Origin: a virus
Taxonomy: Duplodnaviria > Heunggongvirae > Uroviricota > Caudoviricetes
Virus record (IMG/VR): IMGVR_UViG_2648501873_000005
Length of the DNA stretch: 36,416 nucleotides
Strand: one strand, 5' to 3'
Part shown: positions 2,905 to 26,611 of the stretch, piece by piece
How the letters are laid out: each line of letters begins with the position of its first letter
Position numbering within the stretch: the first letter of the stretch is position 1
Made by a program: the position numbers and the translations under genes
Notes under the pieces: model-generated
What the model was told of the DNA's origin: nothing
What the model saw: the letters and a program-made list of their open reading frames with translations, nothing else
Databases searched by the model: none

Positions 2905-3108
2905 TTGATGATTGTCTGGCTGCCGGAGAATTTGTTAAAAATTACATCGCATGGTGAATCCCCCTCAGCGGCGGGGCATCTGGCAAAGTGTATGATCCAG
3001 AGAACATGCAAATTCAGTAGACAGGCTGAATTTACCGGGAGGCCCCTGGCACCATGCGACAGACAGAAATTAGGCTATACTTCAGCCCCTCTCCGGAGGG
3101 GCTTTTCT
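2905..3108 (+). repeat. Copy 1 of a diverged direct repeat of about 200 bp, ending in a terminator-like hairpin
   Basis: Blocks shared with copy 2: TTGTCTGGC..TTTGTTAAAAA..TCGCATGGTGAATCCCCCT, ACCGGGAGGC.C..GGCACCATGC, and the identical hairpin GCCCCTCTCCGGAGGGGC followed by a T-run. Confidence 0.6.
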
Positions 3109-3371
3109 GTGCAGGATGTGTCACAGTTTCCTGAATTCTGAGTACTGTCCTGTTACTCAGGGTGCTATATTTTCTGACGTGATGAAAGTCTGCCGGAAGG
3201 CGGAACGTATCGGAAATGACCCAGTAGAGAAAACGTTGACTCAGATACCGATGCTGAGTTACCGGGAAACCGGCATCACATGACCGCTATCCTTCCAGGC
3301 TCGCTCCGGCGGGCCTTTTTACTGCAGAAAACAGTTTTCCCGTAAAATGCCACGTTGCTCATAATTCAGGC

Positions 3372-3570
3372 TGGCGATTATTGTCTGGCCGGCGGGAAGT
3401 TTGTTAAAAAATTTCGCATGGTGAATCCCCCTGTGCGGAGGGGTAATCAGCGAGTAGGTATATGGGATAATCGCGGATTCAGGTGCTGGTACTGAATTCA
3501 CCGGGAGGCACCCGGCACCATGCAATGGCACATAGCGCCACTCTCCAGCCCCTCTCCGGAGGGGCTGTTT
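3372..3570 (+). repeat. Copy 2 of the same diverged direct repeat
   Basis: Same conserved blocks and the identical GCCCCTCTCCGGAGGGGC hairpin at 3548-3565. Confidence 0.6.
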
Positions 3571-3601
3571 ATATTGATTTTGTCAGATGTGAGTAAACTG
3601 C

Positions 3602-3937
3602 TTATGGACTTTGTTGTTTTAGCCCATAAGGACATATTTGCAGAGTGCAACGGTTATTAAAGCATTCATTCAATACGTTATCTGTATTTGTAGGGCATTC
3701 CTGGCTGTTTTTGATTAAATTCCAGAATGTTTTATTGAATGGTACTACGTTGTAAATGGTTACAGGTAGCACTTTGTTATTGAGCATGATGCCTGTGTGA
3801 GTCAGTGTAAATATACTTTCAGGAGGTAAGAAAGCATCCGATTGATACCAGATTATTAATTTTATTTTACTCCATATGACTGAAAAAGATATTCCGCATG
3901 ATGGCTGGATAACTGTATCAATCACAATCCACTTCAT
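3602..3937 (-). CDS. Hypothetical protein (111 aa) in an AT-rich island
   Basis: Minus-strand ORF with AAGGAAAC ribosome-binding site 6 nt upstream of the ATG. The surrounding 3600-4180 region is visibly AT-rich against a roughly 50-55% GC background. No recognisable family. Confidence 0.4.
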
Positions 3938-4197
3938 TTAGTTTCCTTGTTTATGCCTTGCTGGTGATGTTCTGAAAAGTATAAATGATATTTTTGATTG
4001 TAAACCATAGAGCAGAATTATTTTTCTGATGTTGTTTATTGTTTATTTAAATGCAGGGTGGTTTATATCTCGTCTTGTAGTTTATCCATGCATATCTGCT
4101 TGATGATGAGGTTTTTATTTAAGGTATGGTTTTGTGTTTTTTCTGTATTACATGTCAGGTATTTTAAAGAATCATTTTTCAGATGGTGGAAAGAACC

Positions 4198-6092
4198 ATG
4201 GCATTTAAACACTATGATGTTGTCAGGGCGGCGTCGCCGTCAGATCTTGCGGAAAAGCTGACACATAAACTGAAAGAGGGCTGGCAGCCGTTTGGTAGTC
4301 CGGTGGCCATAACCCCTTATACCCTGATGCAGGCGATTGCAGCAGAAGGTGATGTGGTCGTCAGTGGTGCAACTGAGCCGGAGTGGTACTACGTCATCGT
4401 ACTGGCCGGGCAATCCAATGCCATGGCTTACGGTGAAGGGCTTCCGCTTCCGGATTCTTACGATGCGCCCCACCCACGCATTAAGCAACTGGCCCGTCGC
4501 AACACAGTGACTCCCGGTGGTAAAGCATGCGCATTTAACGACATCATTCCGGCAGACCACTGCCTGCATGATGTTCAGGATATGAGCGCACTGAATCATC
4601 CGAAGGCAGACCTGAGCAAAGGGCAGTACGGCTGTGTCGGCCAGGGCTTACATATTGCCAAAAAACTGCTTCCGTATATCCCGAATAACGCGGGGATCCT
4701 GCTGGTACCATGCTGTCGTGGTGGTTCGGCATTCACCCAGGGCGCGGAGGGGACATTCAGTGCGGACACGGGGGCCAGCCAGGATTCGGCACGCTGGGGT
4801 GTGGGTAAACCGTTATATCAGGACCTGATCGCACGCACCAAAGCGGCATTACAGAAGAACCCGAAAAATGTGTTGCTGGCGGTGTGCTGGATGCAGGGCG
4901 AATTTGACATGAGCGCTGCCACCTACGCACAGCAACCGGACCTGTTCACGGCCATGCTGAAGCAGTTCCGTACTGACCTTTCCGGATTTAACGCGCAGTG
5001 CCATGGCGGCAGTGCTGCAGTTGTACCGTGGATTTGTGGCGACACGACGTATTACTGGAAAAACACATACGGCACACAGTATGACTCCGTCTACGGCGCG
5101 TACAAAAACAGGGAGAGCGACAACGTTTTCTTTGTGCCGTTCATGACCGACGGTAACGGCAACAACACGCCCACCAACTTACCGGCAGAAGACCCGGATA
5201 TTGCTGATGCAGGTTATTACGGCGCGCAATCCCGTAGTAATGGTAATTGGGTATCGTCAAATCGTCCGACACATTTCAGTTCATGGGCGCGCAGGGGCAT
5301 TATTTCGGATCGCCTGGCAACCGCTATTCTGAACGCAGTTGGTCGAACCAGCGCCTTCATCAGCGGTACCGCACCGGAGATTAAACCCTCGCCCGGCGGC
5401 GACACGCCATCGGGGCCGTCTGATGGTGACACATCCGTTCGTACAGTCTCCCTGCTGCCGACAGCCGGAGAGGCTGCTGCGCAGGGCTGGACCATCACCG
5501 GCGGCAGTGTTGCGCTGGAAGATGGTGTGTTTAAGGTTACCAAGCAGAGCAATAAAACCTGGTCCCTGATGCATCCGGTGGATGACGCAGTCTCCCTGCT
5601 GACACGGGGTGGCAGACTGAGCTGTAAGTTTCGACTGTCAGGCGCACTGACCAACAACCAGTTCGGTCTGGGAATTTATCTGTATACCGATGTAGCGTTA
5701 CCTGACGTCGTGGCGATGACCGGGACTGGTAACCCGTTCCTGATGTCGTGGCGATGACCGGGACTGGTAACCCGTTCCTGATGTCGTTCTTCACCCAGAC
5801 CACAGACGGCAAACTGAATCTGATGCATCACAAGAAAGCCGGAAACACAAAGTTGGGCGAGTTCGGGAATTACAGTAACGACTGGCAGACGCTGGAGCTG
5901 GTGTTCACCGCCGGCAGTGCCACGGTTACTCCGAAACTGAATGGAGTGGCTGGCCCGGCATTCCAGGTCATAAAAGACAGTCTGACACTGGGGCTGAATG
6001 CGCTGACGCTGACGGATATTACCAAAAATGCAGCGTATGGCGTTGAGATAGAAAGTCTGGTGCTGGAGATAAATGCACCGGCATCATCATAA
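4198..6092 (+). pseudogene. nanS-p: NanS-p-like esterase (DUF1737 N-domain plus SGNH/SASA sialate O-acetylesterase domain), frameshifted
   Basis: N-terminus MAFKHYDVVRAASPSDL and SASA-like block VIVLAGQSNAMAYGEG. The reading frame breaks at a 38-bp tandem duplication at 5707-5782, so the gene appears as two track ORFs (4183-5757 and 5748-6092). Family assignment from memory. Confidence 0.7.
5707..5782 (+). repeat. Perfect 38-bp tandem duplication (2 copies) inside the esterase gene
   Basis: GTCGTGGCGATGACCGGGACTGGTAACCCGTTCCTGAT occurs twice consecutively. 38 is not a multiple of 3, so it causes a frameshift. Confidence 0.9.
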
Positions 6093-6168
6093 AAAGTGAG
6101 CCAGTCAAATGGAAGGTATCGTTAAACTCACCGGTAGTGTCAGTGGGTCGTCTGAGATGCCTGCATGA

Positions 6169-6207
6169 GTTATCAGAGCCATCAGTACTTAACTGGTGGC
6201 TTTTTTT
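6169..6207 (+). terminator. Terminator-like hairpin upstream of the holin
   Basis: Imperfect stem GCCATCAG/CTGGTGGC followed by TTTTTTTATT. Confidence 0.35.
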
Positions 6208-6242
6208 ATTGTTGTCAGCTTCCGGATAACGGGAGACGGGGT

Positions 6243-6458
6243 ATGTACCAGATGGAAAAAATCACAACAGGTGTGTCATACACCACGTCAGCGGTGGGAA
6301 CGGGCTACTGGTTCCTGCAGTTGCTGGACAGGGTTTCCCCGTCTCAGTGGGCGGCAATAGGCGTGCTGGGGAGTCTGCTGTTTGGGCTGCTGACATATCT
6401 GACTAACCTGTATTTCAAAATCAGAGAGGACCGTCGTAAGGCTGCACGGGGAGAGTAA
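6243..6458 (+). CDS. S: Class II holin / pinholin, phage 21 S-like, with dual-start motif
   Basis: [71 protein letters not shown]. Two Met codons 3 codons apart (typical antiholin/holin dual start), two transmembrane segments, basic C-terminus. Resembles S21 as recalled. Confidence 0.85.
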
Positions 6459-6462
6459 TTCA

Positions 6463-6807
6463 ATGACTCAAAACTATGAACTGATTGTGAAAGGGATCCG
6501 CAATTTTGAGAATAAAGTTACGGTAACTTTAGCGTTACGGGACAAAAAACGCTTTGACGGTGAAATTTTTGACCTGGACATCTCGCTGGACCGTGTTGAA
6601 GGTGCCGCGCTGGAGTTTTATGAGGCAGCAGCCAGAAGGAGCATCAGACAGGTCTTCCTGGATGTTGCTGCCGGGTTATGTGAAGGGGATGAGCAGTCGC
6701 CGGAAAAGCGCCCCGTAATTTTAGAGGCGCAGGATGTGTTGATAACCTACAGAGGAAAACTACCGGGAATAATTACGGGTTCTCTGAAGAGTCCGCCGAA
6801 ATGGTAA
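6463..6807 (+). CDS. Hypothetical protein inserted between holin and endolysin, possibly YdfR/DUF1327-like
   Basis: 114-aa ORF with GGGGAGAG ribosome-binding site. Position matches ydfR in the K-12 Qin prophage; sequence identity to that family is unverified. Confidence 0.5.
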   Translation: MTQNYELIVKGIRNFENKVTVTLALRDKKRFDGEIFDLDISLDRVEGAALEFYEAAARRSIRQVFLDVAAGLCEGDEQSPEKRPVILEAQDVLITYRGKLPGIITGSLKSPPKW

Positions 6808-7045
6808 TTTTACCAGCATATTTTTCATCCAGTAATACAGCAAGCCGCCTGAAAGAGTCTTGTTGTTCCTGAGACCATTTGGGATTGCATGATTCAAACT
6901 GGATTGATGCCAGCGTTGATTGCATCTGTTCCCTTGGAATTGAGAATGCCAGATATGAGAAGGCGACGGTAAGGGTATTCACGTCTTCCCGAAGCCTGGA
7001 AATGCTGTCGAGCAACTCCTGTAGAGAAATGGTGTTATTGTCCAT
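6773..7045 (-). CDS. Hypothetical protein (90 aa), convergent with and overlapping the preceding ORF
   Basis: Minus-strand ORF with strong ribosome-binding site (GAGGATTATTT then ATG). Its 3' end overlaps the 3' end of 6463-6807 by 35 bp. A 7-bp palindrome CAGCCTG..CAGGCTG lies in its upstream region (7069-7091). Confidence 0.4.
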   Translation of the reverse strand: MDNNTISLQELLDSISRLREDVNTLTVAFSYLAFSIPREQMQSTLASIQFESCNPKWSQEQQDSFRRLAVLLDEKYAGKITISADSSENP

Positions 7046-7150
7046 AAATAATCCTCATGATTGTATTGACCTGTTAGCAGCCTGAGGCAACAGGCTGGAA
7101 CTGATAAACATATCCAGGGCTCAGAAACCGATAAATCCTGATAAATATCC

Positions 7151-7684
7151 ATGAACGCAAAAATCAGATACGGCCTGTCGGCTGCCGTTCTGGCGCTGAT
7201 TGCCGCTGGTGCGCCTGCGCCTGACATTCTCGACCAGTTTCTGGATGAAAAGGAAGGTAACCACACCACGGCATACCGTGATGGCGCGGGTATCTGGACC
7301 ATCTGCCGCGGTGCCATCCTGGTGGATGGCAAACCTGTCGTTCCGGGCATGAAGTTGTCGAAGGAAAAATGCGACCGGGTTAACGCCATTGAGCGTGATA
7401 AGGCGCTGGCATGGGTGGAGAAAAACATCAGAGTGCCATTGAGTGAACCCCAGAAAGCGGGGATCGCGTCATTCTGTCCGTACAACATTGGCCCCGGTAA
7501 GTGTTTTCCGTCGACGTTTTATAAACGAATTAATGCAGGTGATCGCAGGGGAGCGTGTGAGGCGATTCGCTGGTGGATTAAGGACGGTGGCAGGGACTGC
7601 CGTATTCGCTCAAATAACTGTTACGGTCAGGTATCCCGTCGTGACCAGGAGAGCGCGCTGGCGTGCTGGGGAATCGACAGATAA
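7151..7684 (+). CDS. R: SAR endolysin (lysozyme, R21-like)
   Basis: 177 aa. N-terminal hydrophobic Gly/Ala-rich signal-anchor-release segment LSAAVLALIAAGAPAP followed by a lysozyme-like domain. Resembles R21-type endolysins as recalled. Confidence 0.85.
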   Translation: MNAKIRYGLSAAVLALIAAGAPAPDILDQFLDEKEGNHTTAYRDGAGIWTICRGAILVDGKPVVPGMKLSKEKCDRVNAIERDKALAWVEKNIRVPLSEPQKAGIASFCPYNIGPGKCFPSTFYKRINAGDRRGACEAIRWWIKDGGRDCRIRSNNCYGQVSRRDQESALACWGIDR

Positions 7685-7774
7685 GCAGAATATTTTGCTA
7701 ATAAATGACGTTGGCCAAGGCGGACGGATAACACGAAATCCTGCGAACTGGCAAAATGTAAGTGAATAAAAGTA

Positions 7775-7812
7775 AAAACCCCGTTTGTTGGCAGCAAGCG
7801 GGGTTTTGTTTT
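7775..7812 (+). terminator. Bidirectional intrinsic terminator-like hairpin
   Basis: AAAACCCCGTTTG-loop-CAAGCGGGGTTTT, a 13-bp stem with one mismatch, flanked by an A-run upstream and a T-run downstream. Confidence 0.5.
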
Positions 7813-7976
7813 TATGGCAGTAAGCTATGGGAGGCTGCCTTGATTGATTTTAGCAAACTGATTAGGGAGTTGCGACTCATGATTAGTCAATTACCAAACT
7901 GGAAATTTTTGCTGGTCTGGAGCATCCCTTTTTTATGGGTAGTATCCCAGTTAATTGTGGCAATTAAGGGGTAGCT

Positions 7977-8108
7977 ATGTCAGACAAACTCATAACGCCG
8001 GCAAAGGTCCTGTGTGTGATTGTCGGTATTTCATTTTCACTAATGCTGGTTGCTCTTTTTCTGTCCCTCGCCTGGGTGATGTTGTCTTCGTCGGGGCTGC
8101 TGGGGTGA
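7977..8108 (+). CDS. Small hydrophobic membrane peptide (43 aa)
   Basis: ATG preceded by AAGGGG. Translation MSDKLITPAKVLCVIVGISFSLMLVALFLSLAWVMLSSSGLLG has one predicted transmembrane helix. Confidence 0.35.
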   Translation: MSDKLITPAKVLCVIVGISFSLMLVALFLSLAWVMLSSSGLLG

Positions 8109-8110
8109 CA

Positions 8111-8227
8111 GTGACTGATGACATCAGCAGAGCGCTGGCTTTTGCTATTAAGTGGGTGGCTGTTGGTATTGCTGTGTCTCCGATGCTGTATGGGCTGGCA
8201 AAACTGGTCATTGCGCTGAAATCGTGA
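8111..8227 (+). CDS. Small hydrophobic peptide (about 38 aa, GTG start), paralogous to the next ORF
   Basis: VTDDISRALAFAIKWVAVGIAVSPMLYGLAKLVIALKS. Shares the core RA[LM]AFAI[KR][WI]VA[VI] with the downstream peptide. Start codon uncertain. Confidence 0.3.
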   Translation: MTDDISRALAFAIKWVAVGIAVSPMLYGLAKLVIALKS

Positions 8228-8238
8228 ACTTTAAAAAG

Positions 8239-8325
8239 ATGAGTGCTGAACTTATTCGGGCAATGGCATTTGCCATTCGTATTGTGGCCATTGCTGTTCT
8301 GGTCTGGGCAATCCGTTGGTGGTGA
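8239..8325 (+). CDS. Small hydrophobic peptide (28 aa), paralogous to the previous ORF
   Basis: [28 protein letters not shown]. Its stop codon is 1 nt before the Rz ATG, suggesting translational coupling. Confidence 0.3.
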
Positions 8326-8326
8326 T

Positions 8327-8794
8327 ATGAACCGTGTTCTGTGTGTGGTGATTATTGTCCTGCTGGTAGCCTGTGGTGTGCTTAGTCTGGGGCTGAATCA
8401 TTACCGCGATAACGCCATCACCTACAAAGCGCAGCGCGATAAAAAAGTCAGTGAGCTGAAACTGGCGAACGCGACAATTACTGATATGCAGATACGCCAG
8501 CGTGATGTCGCTGAACTTGATGCCAGATACTCGAGGGAATTAGCCGATGCGAGAGCTGAAAATGAAACTCTGCGTGCTGATGTTGCCGCTGGTCGTAAGC
8601 GCCTGCGGATCAACGCCACCTGCTCCGGTACCGTGCGTGAAGCCACCGGCACCTCCGGCGTGGATAATGCAACCGGCCCCCGACTGGCAGACACCGCTGA
8701 ACGGGATTATTTCATCCTCAGAGAACGGTTGATGACAATGCAGAAGCAGCTGGAAGGGGCACAGGACTATATCCGCACTCAGTGCCTGAACTAA
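8327..8794 (+). CDS. Rz: i-spanin Rz
   Basis: N-terminal transmembrane segment followed by [16 protein letters not shown] and C-terminal [16 protein letters not shown], closely matching lambda Rz as recalled. Confidence 0.85.
8547..8732 (+). CDS. Rz1: o-spanin Rz1 (outer-membrane lipoprotein), embedded in the +1 frame of Rz
   Basis: [22 protein letters not shown].. with a lipobox and proline-rich body ending [23 protein letters not shown], matching lambda Rz1 as recalled. Confidence 0.8.
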
Positions 8795-9132
8795 GTTTTG
8801 CTGATGCGCCGTATCGTCGCTGTATTCCCTCATTAACAGAGACCGCAGCCCGACAGGGAGACTCCTCTGCGCGAGTGTGCGGGGATAATCAAAAACGATA
8901 CACACCGGGGTTTACCGCGTTAACGGAGCGCGGCGTTGTCCCCTCATAGTCGCCAGTCCGGTGCGATGGTGGAAGAAACAGGACGATGTGTTACCTCGCA
9001 AGCCCTGTTATGTCATGTGTCTGATTTGTGATTTAAGTCGGATAATTGTCGTTGCCATTAAGCAGAGGATTGATGACCGACAGGGCGGCATTGTTAGAAT
9101 AAGACTTATTCTTATCTGTGCGGGGAATGAAA

Positions 9133-9459
9133 ATGAAAAGAAATCTTCCGTTAATTATTTTGTTGTCTTCTCTGGTTATGGGCTGTACGCAACATAAAAC
9201 AGATATGCCCCGACAGTTGGTTAAGGCATTACCACAATATCCGGCCTATGCAGCGGCAAATTATATAAAGGGACGGGTTGATGTGAGGTTTGATATTGGT
9301 GCTGATGGTACTGTCACCCGAATTGAGTTTATTCGTTCAGAGCCGCACCATCTGTTTGATGAGCAGGTTGTAAAGGCGATGGCAAAATGGCGATTTGAGA
9401 AGGACAGGCCGTGTAAAGGCGTGAAGAAAACGTTTATCTTTAGTCCTTCTGCACACTGA
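9133..9459 (+). CDS. Lipoprotein with a TonB C-terminal-like domain (moron)
   Basis: Signal peptide and lipobox (LVMGC). Body YPAYAAANYIKGRVDVRFDIGADGTVTRIEFIRSEPHHLFDEQVVKAMAKWRFE fits the TonB_C pattern (YP..A...G.V.V.F.I..G.V...I..S......A.....W.F). SD GGGGA 6 nt upstream. Start could be 9127. Confidence 0.55.
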   Translation: MKRNLPLIILLSSLVMGCTQHKTDMPRQLVKALPQYPAYAAANYIKGRVDVRFDIGADGTVTRIEFIRSEPHHLFDEQVVKAMAKWRFEKDRPCKGVKKTFIFSPSAH

Positions 9460-26269: not shown

Positions 26270-26273
26270 AACA

Positions 26274-26372
26274 TAAAAAAATCCCGCAGTGATCGCGGAG
26301 CTGCGGGGACAGACAAATGAAGATCAATGTTAAGGAGTTGTTTTTGTTACTCGGGCAAAAAAACACTAACGC
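26274..26372 (-). ncRNA. Candidate small RNA on the minus strand in the I-J gap
   Basis: Minus-strand promoter: -35 TTCACA (plus 26401-26406), 16-bp spacer, perfect -10 TATAAT (plus 26379-26384). About 100 nt downstream is an intrinsic terminator (hairpin at plus 26283-26307 followed by a U-run on the minus strand). No convincing ORF in this unit. Confidence 0.35.
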
Positions 26373-26611
26373 AGCGAAATTATAAGCGCCACAGTCAGTG
26401 TGTGAAAATGTGAAGATATTCAGAATTTTTATGCCATTACCGGTTTTAACCAACAGGATTATCGGTGGGCATGAAAGAAAACCCCGGTATCTGCTGATAC
26501 CGGGGTTTCTCTTTAGCATGGCAGAAATGTGTTTCATGCTTTTCGGGCGAAGGATATCCGACTTCTGTACGGAATGGCAAGTGGCGGTTAATTTATTCAG
26601 GGGAAGGCTGT

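Follow-up and report, generated by a model that had tools for sequence, protein, structure and literature searches.

What does a small antisense gene do inside the lysis cassette of an Escherichia coli prophage, opposite the genes that are transcribed to end the infection? The locus that raises this question lies in the window, the whole stretch of 36,416 nucleotides (nt) analysed here (Caudoviricetes; IMG/VR record IMGVR_UViG_2648501873_000005), where about 690 bp separate the holin gene S from the endolysin gene R. A preliminary description, made from the sequence alone, had noted in this insert a 114-amino-acid (aa) open reading frame (ORF) on the + strand and a convergent 90-aa ORF on the minus strand, here called anti90, and had offered three functions: a lysis regulator, a toxin-antitoxin-like pair or a lysogen-expressed moron. 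The last of these fits best, as phages HK022 and ES18 have genes in this arrangement, likewise with a homologous upstream region, that are annotated as morons. We consider it reasonably likely that the 690-bp insert is a convergent two-gene moron cassette of the HK022 22/23 and ES18 24/25 type, situated in the lysis cassette rather than the tail operon, and that it combines a prophage-expressed accessory protein with a late-expressed cognate partner.

Both the ORF list and the sequence bear out the insert and its contents as first described: the two ORFs start with ATG, their 3' ends overlap by 35 bp (6773-6807), and the minus-strand ORF is preceded by the ribosome-binding site GAGGA at 7056-7052, 6 nt before its start codon. 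The genes for S, the 114-aa protein, R and Rz are all on the + strand, with anti90 on the minus strand. As the antiterminator gene Q lies at 1-822 and the Rz gene (PF03245) at 8243-8794, the pair falls within the Q-dependent late operon, and the presence of a PF04971 holin, a PF00959 lysozyme and a PF03245 Rz protein downstream of Q identifies the surroundings as a phage 21-type lysis cassette. R is judged from its N-terminal sequence to be of the signal-arrest-release (SAR) type. The features of the locus are as follows.

6243-6458, + strand: S21-type class II holin/antiholin gene with dual starts (MYQM...), the upstream late gene (Pfam PF04971, E = 9e-33; PHROG holin families)
6463-6807, + strand: DUF1327/YdfR-family gene, 114 aa, the sense (late-strand) partner (Pfam PF07041; phrog_406)
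6754-6804, + strand: C-terminal tail of the DUF1327 protein (GKLPGIITGSLKSPPKW), a motif that recurs in convergent partners of anti90-family genes
6773-7045, minus strand: antisense gene anti90, 90 aa (PHROG 2411; Ybl58 or hypothetical protein; phrog_2411, E = 1e-58)
7052-7056, minus strand: Shine-Dalgarno sequence GAGGA of anti90, 6 nt before the ATG (sequence reading; conserved in variants)
7078-7097, minus strand: leader stem-loop CAGCCUG / loop / CAGGCUG, the predicted 5' end of the mRNA (RNA fold; leader alignments)
7107-7112, minus strand: candidate -10 hexamer TATGTT of a putative promoter of anti90 (conservation across 101 leaders)
7113-7150, minus strand: conserved promoter-upstream block (CCCTGG; TATCAGG), with invariant alignment columns and conservation at -46 to -32 and -19 to -14; on the + strand it doubles as the region just 5' of the R start codon
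7151-7684, + strand: endolysin gene R, a phage lysozyme with a Gly/Ala-rich SAR-like N-terminal segment, the downstream late gene (Pfam PF00959, E = 1e-23; phrog_7)

The suggestion that the sense gene encodes a YdfR/DUF1327 protein was confirmed by a hidden Markov model search, in which residues 1-111 of 114 matched PF07041 (E = 7.3e-43; 145.2 bits against a cutoff of 25). The protein also matches phrog_406 (E = 4e-68) and is named 'YdfR family protein' in RefSeq and in phage records. Across the 47 DNA variants described below, its ratio of nonsynonymous to synonymous substitution rates (dN/dS; Nei-Gojobori) is 0.42. Escherichia coli K-12 carries a member of the same family in the Qin prophage, 103 aa rather than 114 aa long, which we take to lie between essQ and rrrQ and thus at the holin-endolysin position, as in the window; the empty-site architecture used for comparison below is that of BP-4795, not that of the K-12 Qin locus.

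The geometry and upstream region of the pair recur in the moron pairs of HK022 and ES18

Upstream of distant relatives of anti90 stands a conserved element that consists of the block CCCTGGnTAnnnT, then TCAGCC(C), a hairpin of variable sequence and (G)GGATGGCTGA-TTAAC, after which come about 15 nt, a ribosome-binding site and the ATG. The same element is found 5' of two antisense genes that are unrelated to anti90, gp06 of Shiga toxin (Stx) phage Stx2 phage 86 and an 86-aa gene of PhiR5_1. A BLAST search with the general form of this leader against named phages returned HK022, HK633, mEp213, mEp043, ES18, SPN3UB and others. HK022 carries the leader in the gap between tail genes I and J, 5' of the antisense gene for gp23 ('srb protein; moron gene product'), which is convergent with the gene for gp22, likewise a 'moron gene product'. 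In ES18, it lies between tail genes M and L, 5' of gene 25 ('possible moron'), which is convergent with gene 24; the latter encodes a DUF1327 domain protein according to RefSeq, and terminators are annotated for genes 24 and 25. These labels follow the annotation deposited in GenBank by Juhala et al. 2000 and Casjens et al. 2005.

The upstream regions of HK022 and ES18, with about 85% identity to the general leader, are homologous to that of anti90, which contains the TATCAGG, CCCTGGnTAnnnT and CAGCC blocks. When the window, phage 86, PhiR5_1, HK022, ES18 and locus L172 were aligned (L-numbers designate individual loci), the TATCAGG, CCCTGGnTA and CAGCC blocks proved invariant. As in the window, the pairs of HK022 and ES18 consist of a short sense gene that converges with, and overlaps or abuts, a small antisense gene in the late operon. 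Judged by this geometry and the homologous upstream region, the window pair is a convergent moron pair of the HK022 22/23 and ES18 24/25 type, and the shared blocks together with the DUF1327 partner in ES18 suggest that it represents a further member, at a new position and with a different cargo, of a kind of element already known when morons were first defined (PMC3594210). It lies between holin and endolysin genes, whereas the HK022 and ES18 pairs lie between tail genes I and J or M and L; its cargo, a PHROG 2411 protein, is unrelated to gp23 and gp25; and it lacks the flanking terminators of ES18 and of the tail-operon relatives.

Two observations concern the tail-operon sites themselves. 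In tail-operon copies of the cassette (L197, L213 and L194; ES18 locus L309, 1501-1522), a late-strand GC hairpin followed by a run of seven T residues immediately precedes the following late gene; in ES18 it carries the annotation of a terminator, and the window copy has none. Such a late-strand terminator suggests that in these copies the sense partner is transcribed independently of Q as well. The window also contains the site that corresponds to HK022 22/23, a stretch of 342 nt between tail genes I and J (26270-26611), where we found no sizeable ORF except long minus-strand shadow ORFs overlapping I/J and no match to the leader motif. This stretch may be a decayed cassette, and no other copy of the leader was found within the window, the I-J gap included.

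The antisense ORF is conserved in frame, length and protein sequence

The antisense gene had initially been described as unrecognized. This holds insofar as searches of Pfam, NCBIfam and PADLOC returned no model for anti90, but genome annotations routinely include the gene, as a hypothetical protein or as Ybl58, and under these names the identical protein is present on at least 1000 public contigs. Its DNA occurs at a coverage of at least 80% in 1130 of 5426 complete E. coli genomes (about one in five), where the ORF is annotated by the Prokaryotic Genome Annotation Pipeline, and the Rac prophage of E. coli B (also in BL21) is among the carriers of the pair, with the gene order essD, ydfR-family gene, WP_000370546, rrrQ. 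In the phage collection, 3 records contain anti90 versus 369 with the same flanking lysis genes. Residues 1-90 of the protein align with profile positions 1-90 of PHROG 2411 (E = 1.1e-58), which distant members match too. Nothing on ybl58 was found in the searchable literature, and P0061, a sequence labelled 'ybl58' with 44% identity, was rejected as a distant homologue, being a double-frameshifted copy.

Selection on the ORF was analyzed in 47 distinct DNA variants of the interval from the start of the DUF1327 gene to 30 nt past the start of R, all of which are 718 nt long, with zero indels at a divergence of up to about 14%. The anti90 ORF is intact in 45 of them, with a dN/dS of 0.28 (Nei-Gojobori), and the other two carry a nonsense codon in anti90 alongside an intact DUF1327 gene. 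A Citrobacter homologue of 83 aa (60% identity) keeps the frame, as does the copy in E. ruysiae. A profile search of 1.84 billion cluster representatives recovered only 19 relatives, several of them 81-97 aa long with 24-42% identity, and the hydrophobic pattern of the protein is kept in the alignment from 87% down to 24% identity. The distant members taken together were too divergent for a pattern to be designed from their alignment, and a metagenome scan with them gave no confirmed match. An AlphaFold 2 model of anti90 comprises three helices (predicted local distance difference test score 71) with residues 79-90 disordered, the portion that is encoded in the overlap with DUF1327; the product is probably a small, soluble, three-helix protein, and the 3' overlap is largely the anti90 ORF running into DUF1327, with its last ~9 codons, until a stop is reached.

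Could the minus-strand ORF be non-functional, an annotation artefact or a decaying remnant? Apart from the lack of a Pfam or NCBIfam match and the stop codons in two of the 47 variants, polymorphism in anti90 is only weakly skewed by codon position (47/39/52), and the mirror + frame, whose wobble positions coincide with those of anti90, has a pseudo-dN/dS of 0.165, lower than that of anti90, as is expected for such frame geometry. We regard this explanation as highly improbable, however, since frame, length and ribosome-binding site are preserved over 14% DNA divergence and homology extends to Citrobacter at 60% aa identity, stops disrupt the mirror frame in most variants, the window among them, homologues of the same length occur in other phage contexts, and the identical protein is so widely distributed. 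Taken together, these analyses show the minus-strand ORF to be a genuine gene, whose protein is under purifying selection and belongs to a narrow family. The preliminary description had allowed for an antisense ORF that lacks conservation at homologous loci; it is conserved there, in nearly all of the variants as well as in distant homologues. In variants of about 82% identity (L002-type) the mirror + ORF (about 89 aa; window region 6801-7070) is open and starts as ATGgTAA on the DUF1327 stop codon. Odd as this coupled start is, we judged the mirror ORF to be probably a shadow frame, as stops interrupt it in most variants.

The candidate promoter and the leader of anti90

A promoter for anti90 had been proposed at TTGCCT (7090-7085) and TACAAT (7065-7060), with a 7-bp palindrome embedded in it at 7069-7091. 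The spacer between these hexamers would be 19 nt, and TACAAT ends 14 nt before the ATG, so that a transcript would start inside or beyond the Shine-Dalgarno sequence; a sigma-70 consensus scan called no site there, and TTGCCT is replaced by TTGAAT or CTGAAT in variants of 82-87% identity. In view of the spacer, the distance to the ATG and the unconserved -35, we rejected this site as the main promoter; it could still act as a minor one. The inverted repeat actually lies at 7078-7084 (CAGCCTG) and 7091-7097 (CAGGCTG) and, rather than being embedded in a promoter, forms the base stem of the conserved leader according to RNA folding and leader alignments. Comparison with phage 86, PhiR5_1, HK022, ES18 and L172 revealed that the window stem-loop is a shortened homologue of the TCAGCC...GGCTGA outer stem.

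The leader alignments point to a different promoter. Counted from the outer-stem T of TCAGCC in 101 distinct leaders, T at -12 (0.91), A at -11 (0.97) and T at -7 (0.91) are strongly conserved and the positions between -11 and -7 more weakly, from which we infer that TAnnnT is a -10 hexamer with transcription starting at the base of the stem. The window hexamer at this position is TATGTT (7112-7107), and the block CCCTGGaTATGTT is common to HK022, ES18 and phage 86. TATGTT thus appears a better -10 candidate than TACAAT, and the palindrome would then be the 5'-terminal stem of the mRNA leader.

Longer copies of the leader contain two additional hairpins. Pairing in the inner hairpin reaches 95%, and three compensatory pairs are seen across five lineages; of 500 shuffles, 8 scored as high. 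This hairpin has many other stem versions, among them CGUCAGUG/CACUGGCG, CGACUGUG/CACAGUCG and CAUCCAUG/CAUGGAUG, and its G.U pairs fit the cargo strand only. The second hairpin has 5 bp, with G-C/A-U exchanges, and presents the invariant loop GAUGGCUGAUUA. No Rfam family matched window 6000-7800 or the full-length leaders of L172, L175, L185 and L186 at E <= 1, and nothing on the leader sequence was found in the searchable literature. Two further properties of the leader were observed. The GAUGGCUGAUUA loop reads as a mini-ORF, AUG-GCU-GAU-UAA, preceded by GGAGG (L172, 3880-4003; HK022 locus L308, 1527-1656; ES18 locus L309, 1527-1653; about 100 other loci), which in L172-type copies is in frame with the cargo (MADYLFKGNV-M...), and two GGA motifs about 25 nt apart resemble CsrA sites.

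Variable inserts occupy the S-R site, and one leader precedes many unrelated genes

Phages related to the window differ in what lies between DUF1327 and R. Their DUF1327 cores are 93-100% identical and the flanks of the variable interval nearly so, while the interval itself, which begins with DUF1327 and ends 30 nt into R, measures 425 or 444 nt at empty sites (BP-4795 and Stx1a phages), 718 nt with anti90 and 985 or 1289 nt with other inserts. At this site PhiR5_1 encodes a DUF1327 protein with a 99-aa C-terminal extension together with its unrelated antisense 86-aa gene, and phage 86 a DUF1327 protein with a 156-aa extension together with the unrelated antisense 104-aa gene gp06; BLASTP detected no pairwise similarity among the anti90, gp06 and PhiR5_1 86-aa proteins. 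Extra DNA that is present in only some collinear phages, as in morons in the sense of Juhala et al. 2000, is therefore what is found at the S-R site. The DNA missing from empty sites corresponds to about 6800-7090 of the window, and because BP-4795 retains the upstream part of the antisense promoter region, fused directly to the DUF1327 stop, the empty sites look like deletions. In phiSTEC1575-Stx2k, S21-DUF1327-anti90 is kept and is followed by a different lysis module, with other holins and an M15 endolysin.

The leader also extends well beyond the anti90 family. The pattern TCAGCY N15-45 GGRATGGYTGATWAMC matched at least 120 IMG/VR contigs, against a rough chance expectation of fewer than 10, and in 112 of 121 pattern matches an ATG-initiated ORF, mostly of 63-105 aa, starts 14-21 nt 3' of the leader. 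These cargo ORFs form at least 23 clusters unrelated by BLASTP, the largest of which includes HK022 gp23. A Pfam domain (DUF1883) was recognised in just one cluster, and another has weak similarity to a Lar-like zinc ribbon; none is a known defence protein, all PHROG matches of the clusters are to families of 'unknown function', and one cargo representative has a marginal match in PADLOC-DB 2.0 (PDC-M14A, E = 2e-4). Of the partner ORFs that accompany the leader, 51 representatives were compared: 6 match DUF1327, 3 match a Phage_Tail_Tip coiled coil, and many begin with MTLEQRVEALEK followed by a variable C-terminus that tracks the type of cargo. A single conserved promoter/leader therefore flags dozens of unrelated small prophage proteins, HK022 gp23 and ES18 gp25 among them.

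We tentatively raise the possibility, doubtful as it still is, that the window pair is one of many exchangeable two-gene cassettes that together form a large class in the temperate phages of enterobacteria. Such cassettes would share a conserved sigma-70-type promoter and a structured leader made up of a 5'-terminal stem and two hairpins, one covarying and with the loop GGUGGGA, the other displaying the invariant loop GAUGGCUGAUUA. They would carry one of at least 23 unrelated small cargos, transcribed antisense to a late operon, and would encode a partner in which a conserved head, either the MTLEQRVEALEK coiled coil or the DUF1327 domain, is joined to a cargo-specific tail that binds the cargo. 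If so, the cargos would represent a pool of new prophage defence or exclusion factors that come with their own counter-defence, and the leader a new regulatory RNA motif, possibly under the control of a host factor such as CsrA or RNase E. No description of this leader-marked set of antisense genes with late-strand partners as a class was found in the searchable literature.

The C-terminal tail of the sense partner accompanies the anti90 family

Members of PHROG 2411 in phages are always antisense in late operons and convergent with a short sense gene. They lie between tail genes M and L in L172-L174, L181, L182 and L185, between I and J in L183 and L186, upstream of the terminase gene in L179 and, in the Citrobacter locus L086, before a holin gene. 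The convergent sense gene closes, in 7 of 8 phage contexts, with the C-terminal motif of the window DUF1327 protein, G-K/N-L/I-x(3-4)-I/L-T/F/S-G-S/D-L/I..P, which is found in L086, L172, L183, L186 and L179 and, in weaker form, in L185. Examples are given below.

Window: ...GKLPGIITGSLKSPPKW
L172: ...KGNIFSDQIFGDLKKPPSY
L086: ...GKIRNEKITGSLRVPMKL
L183: ...KITGSLFAP...
L186: ...KISGDLIKIPI

The 238-aa Citrobacter partner has no significant similarity to DUF1327 except for this motif. Codons for the tail differ at many synonymous positions, and the sense and antisense genes overlap by 7 to 47 nt. That the tail motif is kept at the protein level alongside the anti90 family is the main argument for a functional, and probably also physical, link between the two products. 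In L086 (Citrobacter meridianamericanus), a HicA/HicB-like pair and a 300-aa ORF adjoin the cassette (4087-5847); the ORF has a pertussis-toxin-S1-like N-terminal motif, these neighbours having been identified by eye from translations.

A proposed mechanism for the pair and its alternatives

We propose that anti90 is transcribed from its own sigma-70-type promoter (-10 TATGTT, 7112-7107) independently of Q, and hence would be active in the lysogen. Its mRNA would start at about 7099 with the 5'-terminal stem-loop (7097-7078) and be translated from the GAGGA site and, as no terminator follows, the transcript would run antisense into the DUF1327 and holin genes. On induction, Q-antiterminated late transcription would cross the cassette in the opposite sense, depress anti90 through collision and RNA duplex formation, and supply the DUF1327 protein, whose tail (…GKLPGIITGSLKSPP), co-varying with the anti90 cargo family, would engage the 90-aa protein. 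The latter would be a prophage-expressed accessory protein acting in defence, exclusion or host modulation that is bound or neutralised by its late cognate partner.

By analogy, the most likely logic for such a pair is that of the TaiEcA/AtiEcA 'noncontiguous operon' of phi80 (He et al. 2024, PMC11364771), in which the defence gene tai is antisense within the Q operon and expressed in the lysogen, Tai declines upon Q expression, and the neighbouring late-strand gene, ati, encodes a protein that binds Tai and neutralises it. Like tai, anti90 is an antisense gene inside a Q-dependent late operon beside a small late-strand gene. The two systems differ in geometry, tai and ati being divergent with a 5' overlap and ati downstream, whereas the window pair is convergent with a 3' overlap and the sense gene upstream, and in the size of the antisense product (204 aa for Tai versus 90 aa). 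The conserved leader was not found in the region upstream of phi80 tai. If leader-marked pairs work like Tai/Ati, the leader would provide a cheap sequence handle for mining defence/counter-defence pairs in lambdoid prophages, and DUF1327/YdfR would gain a role as a late-expressed partner module. The genes on either side of the pair encode a pinholin and a SAR endolysin, so that an antisense effect on them would bear on lysis control in Stx-type phages.

Several observations weigh against this proposal. The window proteins gave no significant BLASTP alignment with phi80 gp52 and gp51 (Tai/Ati); neither they nor 22 of 23 cargo representatives matched PADLOC-DB 2.0; and a Foldseek search of the PDB with the anti90 model returned no match (E >= 2). 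The promoter of anti90, which we infer from conservation, has no convincing -35, and the consensus scan did not pick it up. In the window the leader is shortened, with the -10, one stem-loop (7097-7078) and the ribosome-binding site and, unlike those of HK022 and ES18, without the inner hairpin or the GAUGGCUGAUUA hairpin. Scanning revealed no terminator-like site after anti90 or between the cassette and R, so that the terminator of its own expected of a moron is missing from the window pair. In many phages, BP-4795 and Stx1a phages among them, DUF1327 has no antisense gene beside it, and orphan chromosomal genes of the anti90 family (L171, L177 and L184) have neither partner nor leader; pairing is therefore not obligatory. 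Physical linkage could partly account for the co-variation of partner tail and cargo. Finally, K-12 YdfR has been linked to binding of the catalytic half (N-terminal domain) of RNase E and to RNA co-purification, not to a partner protein, and its overproduction changed few transcripts (PMC13232886, an RNase E interactor screen and the only functional paper on ydfR/DUF1327 found in the searchable literature); these data neither favour nor contradict the proposed working of the pair.

Among other explanations, the antisense transcription rather than the protein might matter, with the minus-strand RNA pairing or colliding with late transcripts over DUF1327 and S21 and thereby silencing leaky holin and SAR-endolysin expression in lysogens, setting lysis timing, or conferring immunity to homologous superinfecting phages. 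The 35-bp 3' overlap, the lack of a terminator after the ORF and the conserved structured leader, which suggests control of RNA stability, all accord with this, as do the lower expression of phi80 Tai with Q on (PMC11364771) and the precedent of STnc6030, an RNA antisense to late genes of Salmonella prophage BTP1 that blocks BTP1 superinfection (PMC7067206). STnc6030 resembles the window element in being a lysogen-expressed transcript antisense to late genes, as anti90 is presumed to be, but it contains no ORF above 60 aa, whereas the window element encodes a conserved protein. That ORF is under purifying selection, its product is conserved at 24-60% identity where the DNA cannot be aligned and opposite quite different late genes, including tail genes M/L and I/J, an intact ATG ORF with a ribosome-binding site nearly always follows the leader, and the same S21-DUF1327-R genes occur in phages without the insert. 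Given this protein conservation, an RNA effect cannot be the whole story and appears unlikely as the principal function, although an RNA-level contribution alongside the protein is plausible.

The same pair could instead be an addiction module in which either the DUF1327 or the 90-aa protein is toxic and the other its antidote, so stabilising the prophage, or a colicin-type effector-immunity pair, which reverses the roles in the cognate-pair idea: the late sense protein, released at lysis, would act on neighbours or competing phages while the constitutively expressed antisense protein protects the lysogen. Two small adjoining genes with overlapping 3' ends that move together, into a different lysis module and into Citrobacter, and a partner C-terminus that correlates with cargo type are what a toxin-antitoxin pair might look like. 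The genes are convergent and not co-transcribed, however, phages often carry DUF1327 but no antisense gene, members of the antisense family are likewise found where DUF1327 is missing, searches against toxin, antitoxin and defence models returned nothing for either protein, overproduced K-12 YdfR altered few transcripts (PMC13232886), and anti90 is lost to nonsense codons in two variants that keep DUF1327. A type II system is thus not indicated; nor is a type I system, as both products are hydrophilic without a hydrophobic stretch, neither resembles a small hydrophobic type I toxin, and the antisense partner encodes a conserved protein. The earlier suggestion of a toxin-antitoxin-like pair fails on orientation, co-occurrence and the absence of toxin-like features, and we hold it to be improbable. 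In favour of an effector-immunity pair, the architecture recalls that of pore-forming colicin operons, in which an immunity gene with a promoter of its own is inserted antisense between the activity and lysis genes, and the conserved N-terminus (MTLEQRVEALEK or the DUF1327 domain) joined to a cargo-linked variable C-terminus is reminiscent of polymorphic toxin systems. The partners are just 45-140 aa long, though, with a 'variable' part of about 17 residues in the window; the two window proteins, the ones checked, match no secretion-signal, membrane or toxin family; and DUF1327 alone is common, so that we give this idea very little credence. The reading we prefer remains that of a convergent moron pair: the unrecognized antisense gene is a real, widespread accessory gene, of the moron type and not half of a toxin-antitoxin pair or an artefact.

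Comparison with classical morons shows where this pair departs from the type. As with lambda bor and HK97 gp15 (PMC3594210), the insert is extra DNA in some collinear lambdoid phages that is absent from others and a presumed independent transcription unit expressed from the prophage. A classical moron has its own terminator and usually one gene, whereas the window has two convergent genes and no terminator, and classical moron products are membrane proteins or lipoproteins, whereas that of anti90 is predicted to be a soluble helical protein.

Other features of the late region

Directly 5' of the S21 holin start, the + strand contains a strong terminator-like hairpin (6175-6203; a 12-bp stem and a T-run) that is presumably passed only by Q-modified polymerase. 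Further upstream, downstream of Q and of a DNA methylase gene (1397-2446), lie two tRNA genes and two tandem copies of the STnc100 small RNA family scoring 138 and 132 bits (tRNA and STnc100 features at 2496-2652 and 2919-3576, + strand). Another antisense ORF, of 111 aa (3602-3937, minus strand), occupies the late region between Q and the holin gene; it is PmrD/IraM-like according to the annotations of the related loci L003 and L004, and a Pfam scan of it gave no match at E <= 0.001. A NanS-p-like esterase gene (DUF1737 and SASA, then DUF6645) appears to be split by a frameshift into ORFs of 524 and 114 aa (4183-5757 and 5748-6092, + strand), the near-identical locus L004 having a single 574-aa gene.

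On the other side of the cassette, the gap of about 560 nt between the endolysin and Rz genes (7685-8242, + strand) contains only small hydrophobic ORFs (7762-7974, 7977-8108 and 8118-8219), at a position occupied by the antirepressor gene ant in BP-4795 and Stx2 phage 86. Between Rz and the HNH/terminase genes, a 113-aa ORF (9118-9459, + strand) encodes a TonB C-terminal domain (PF03544, E = 1e-14).

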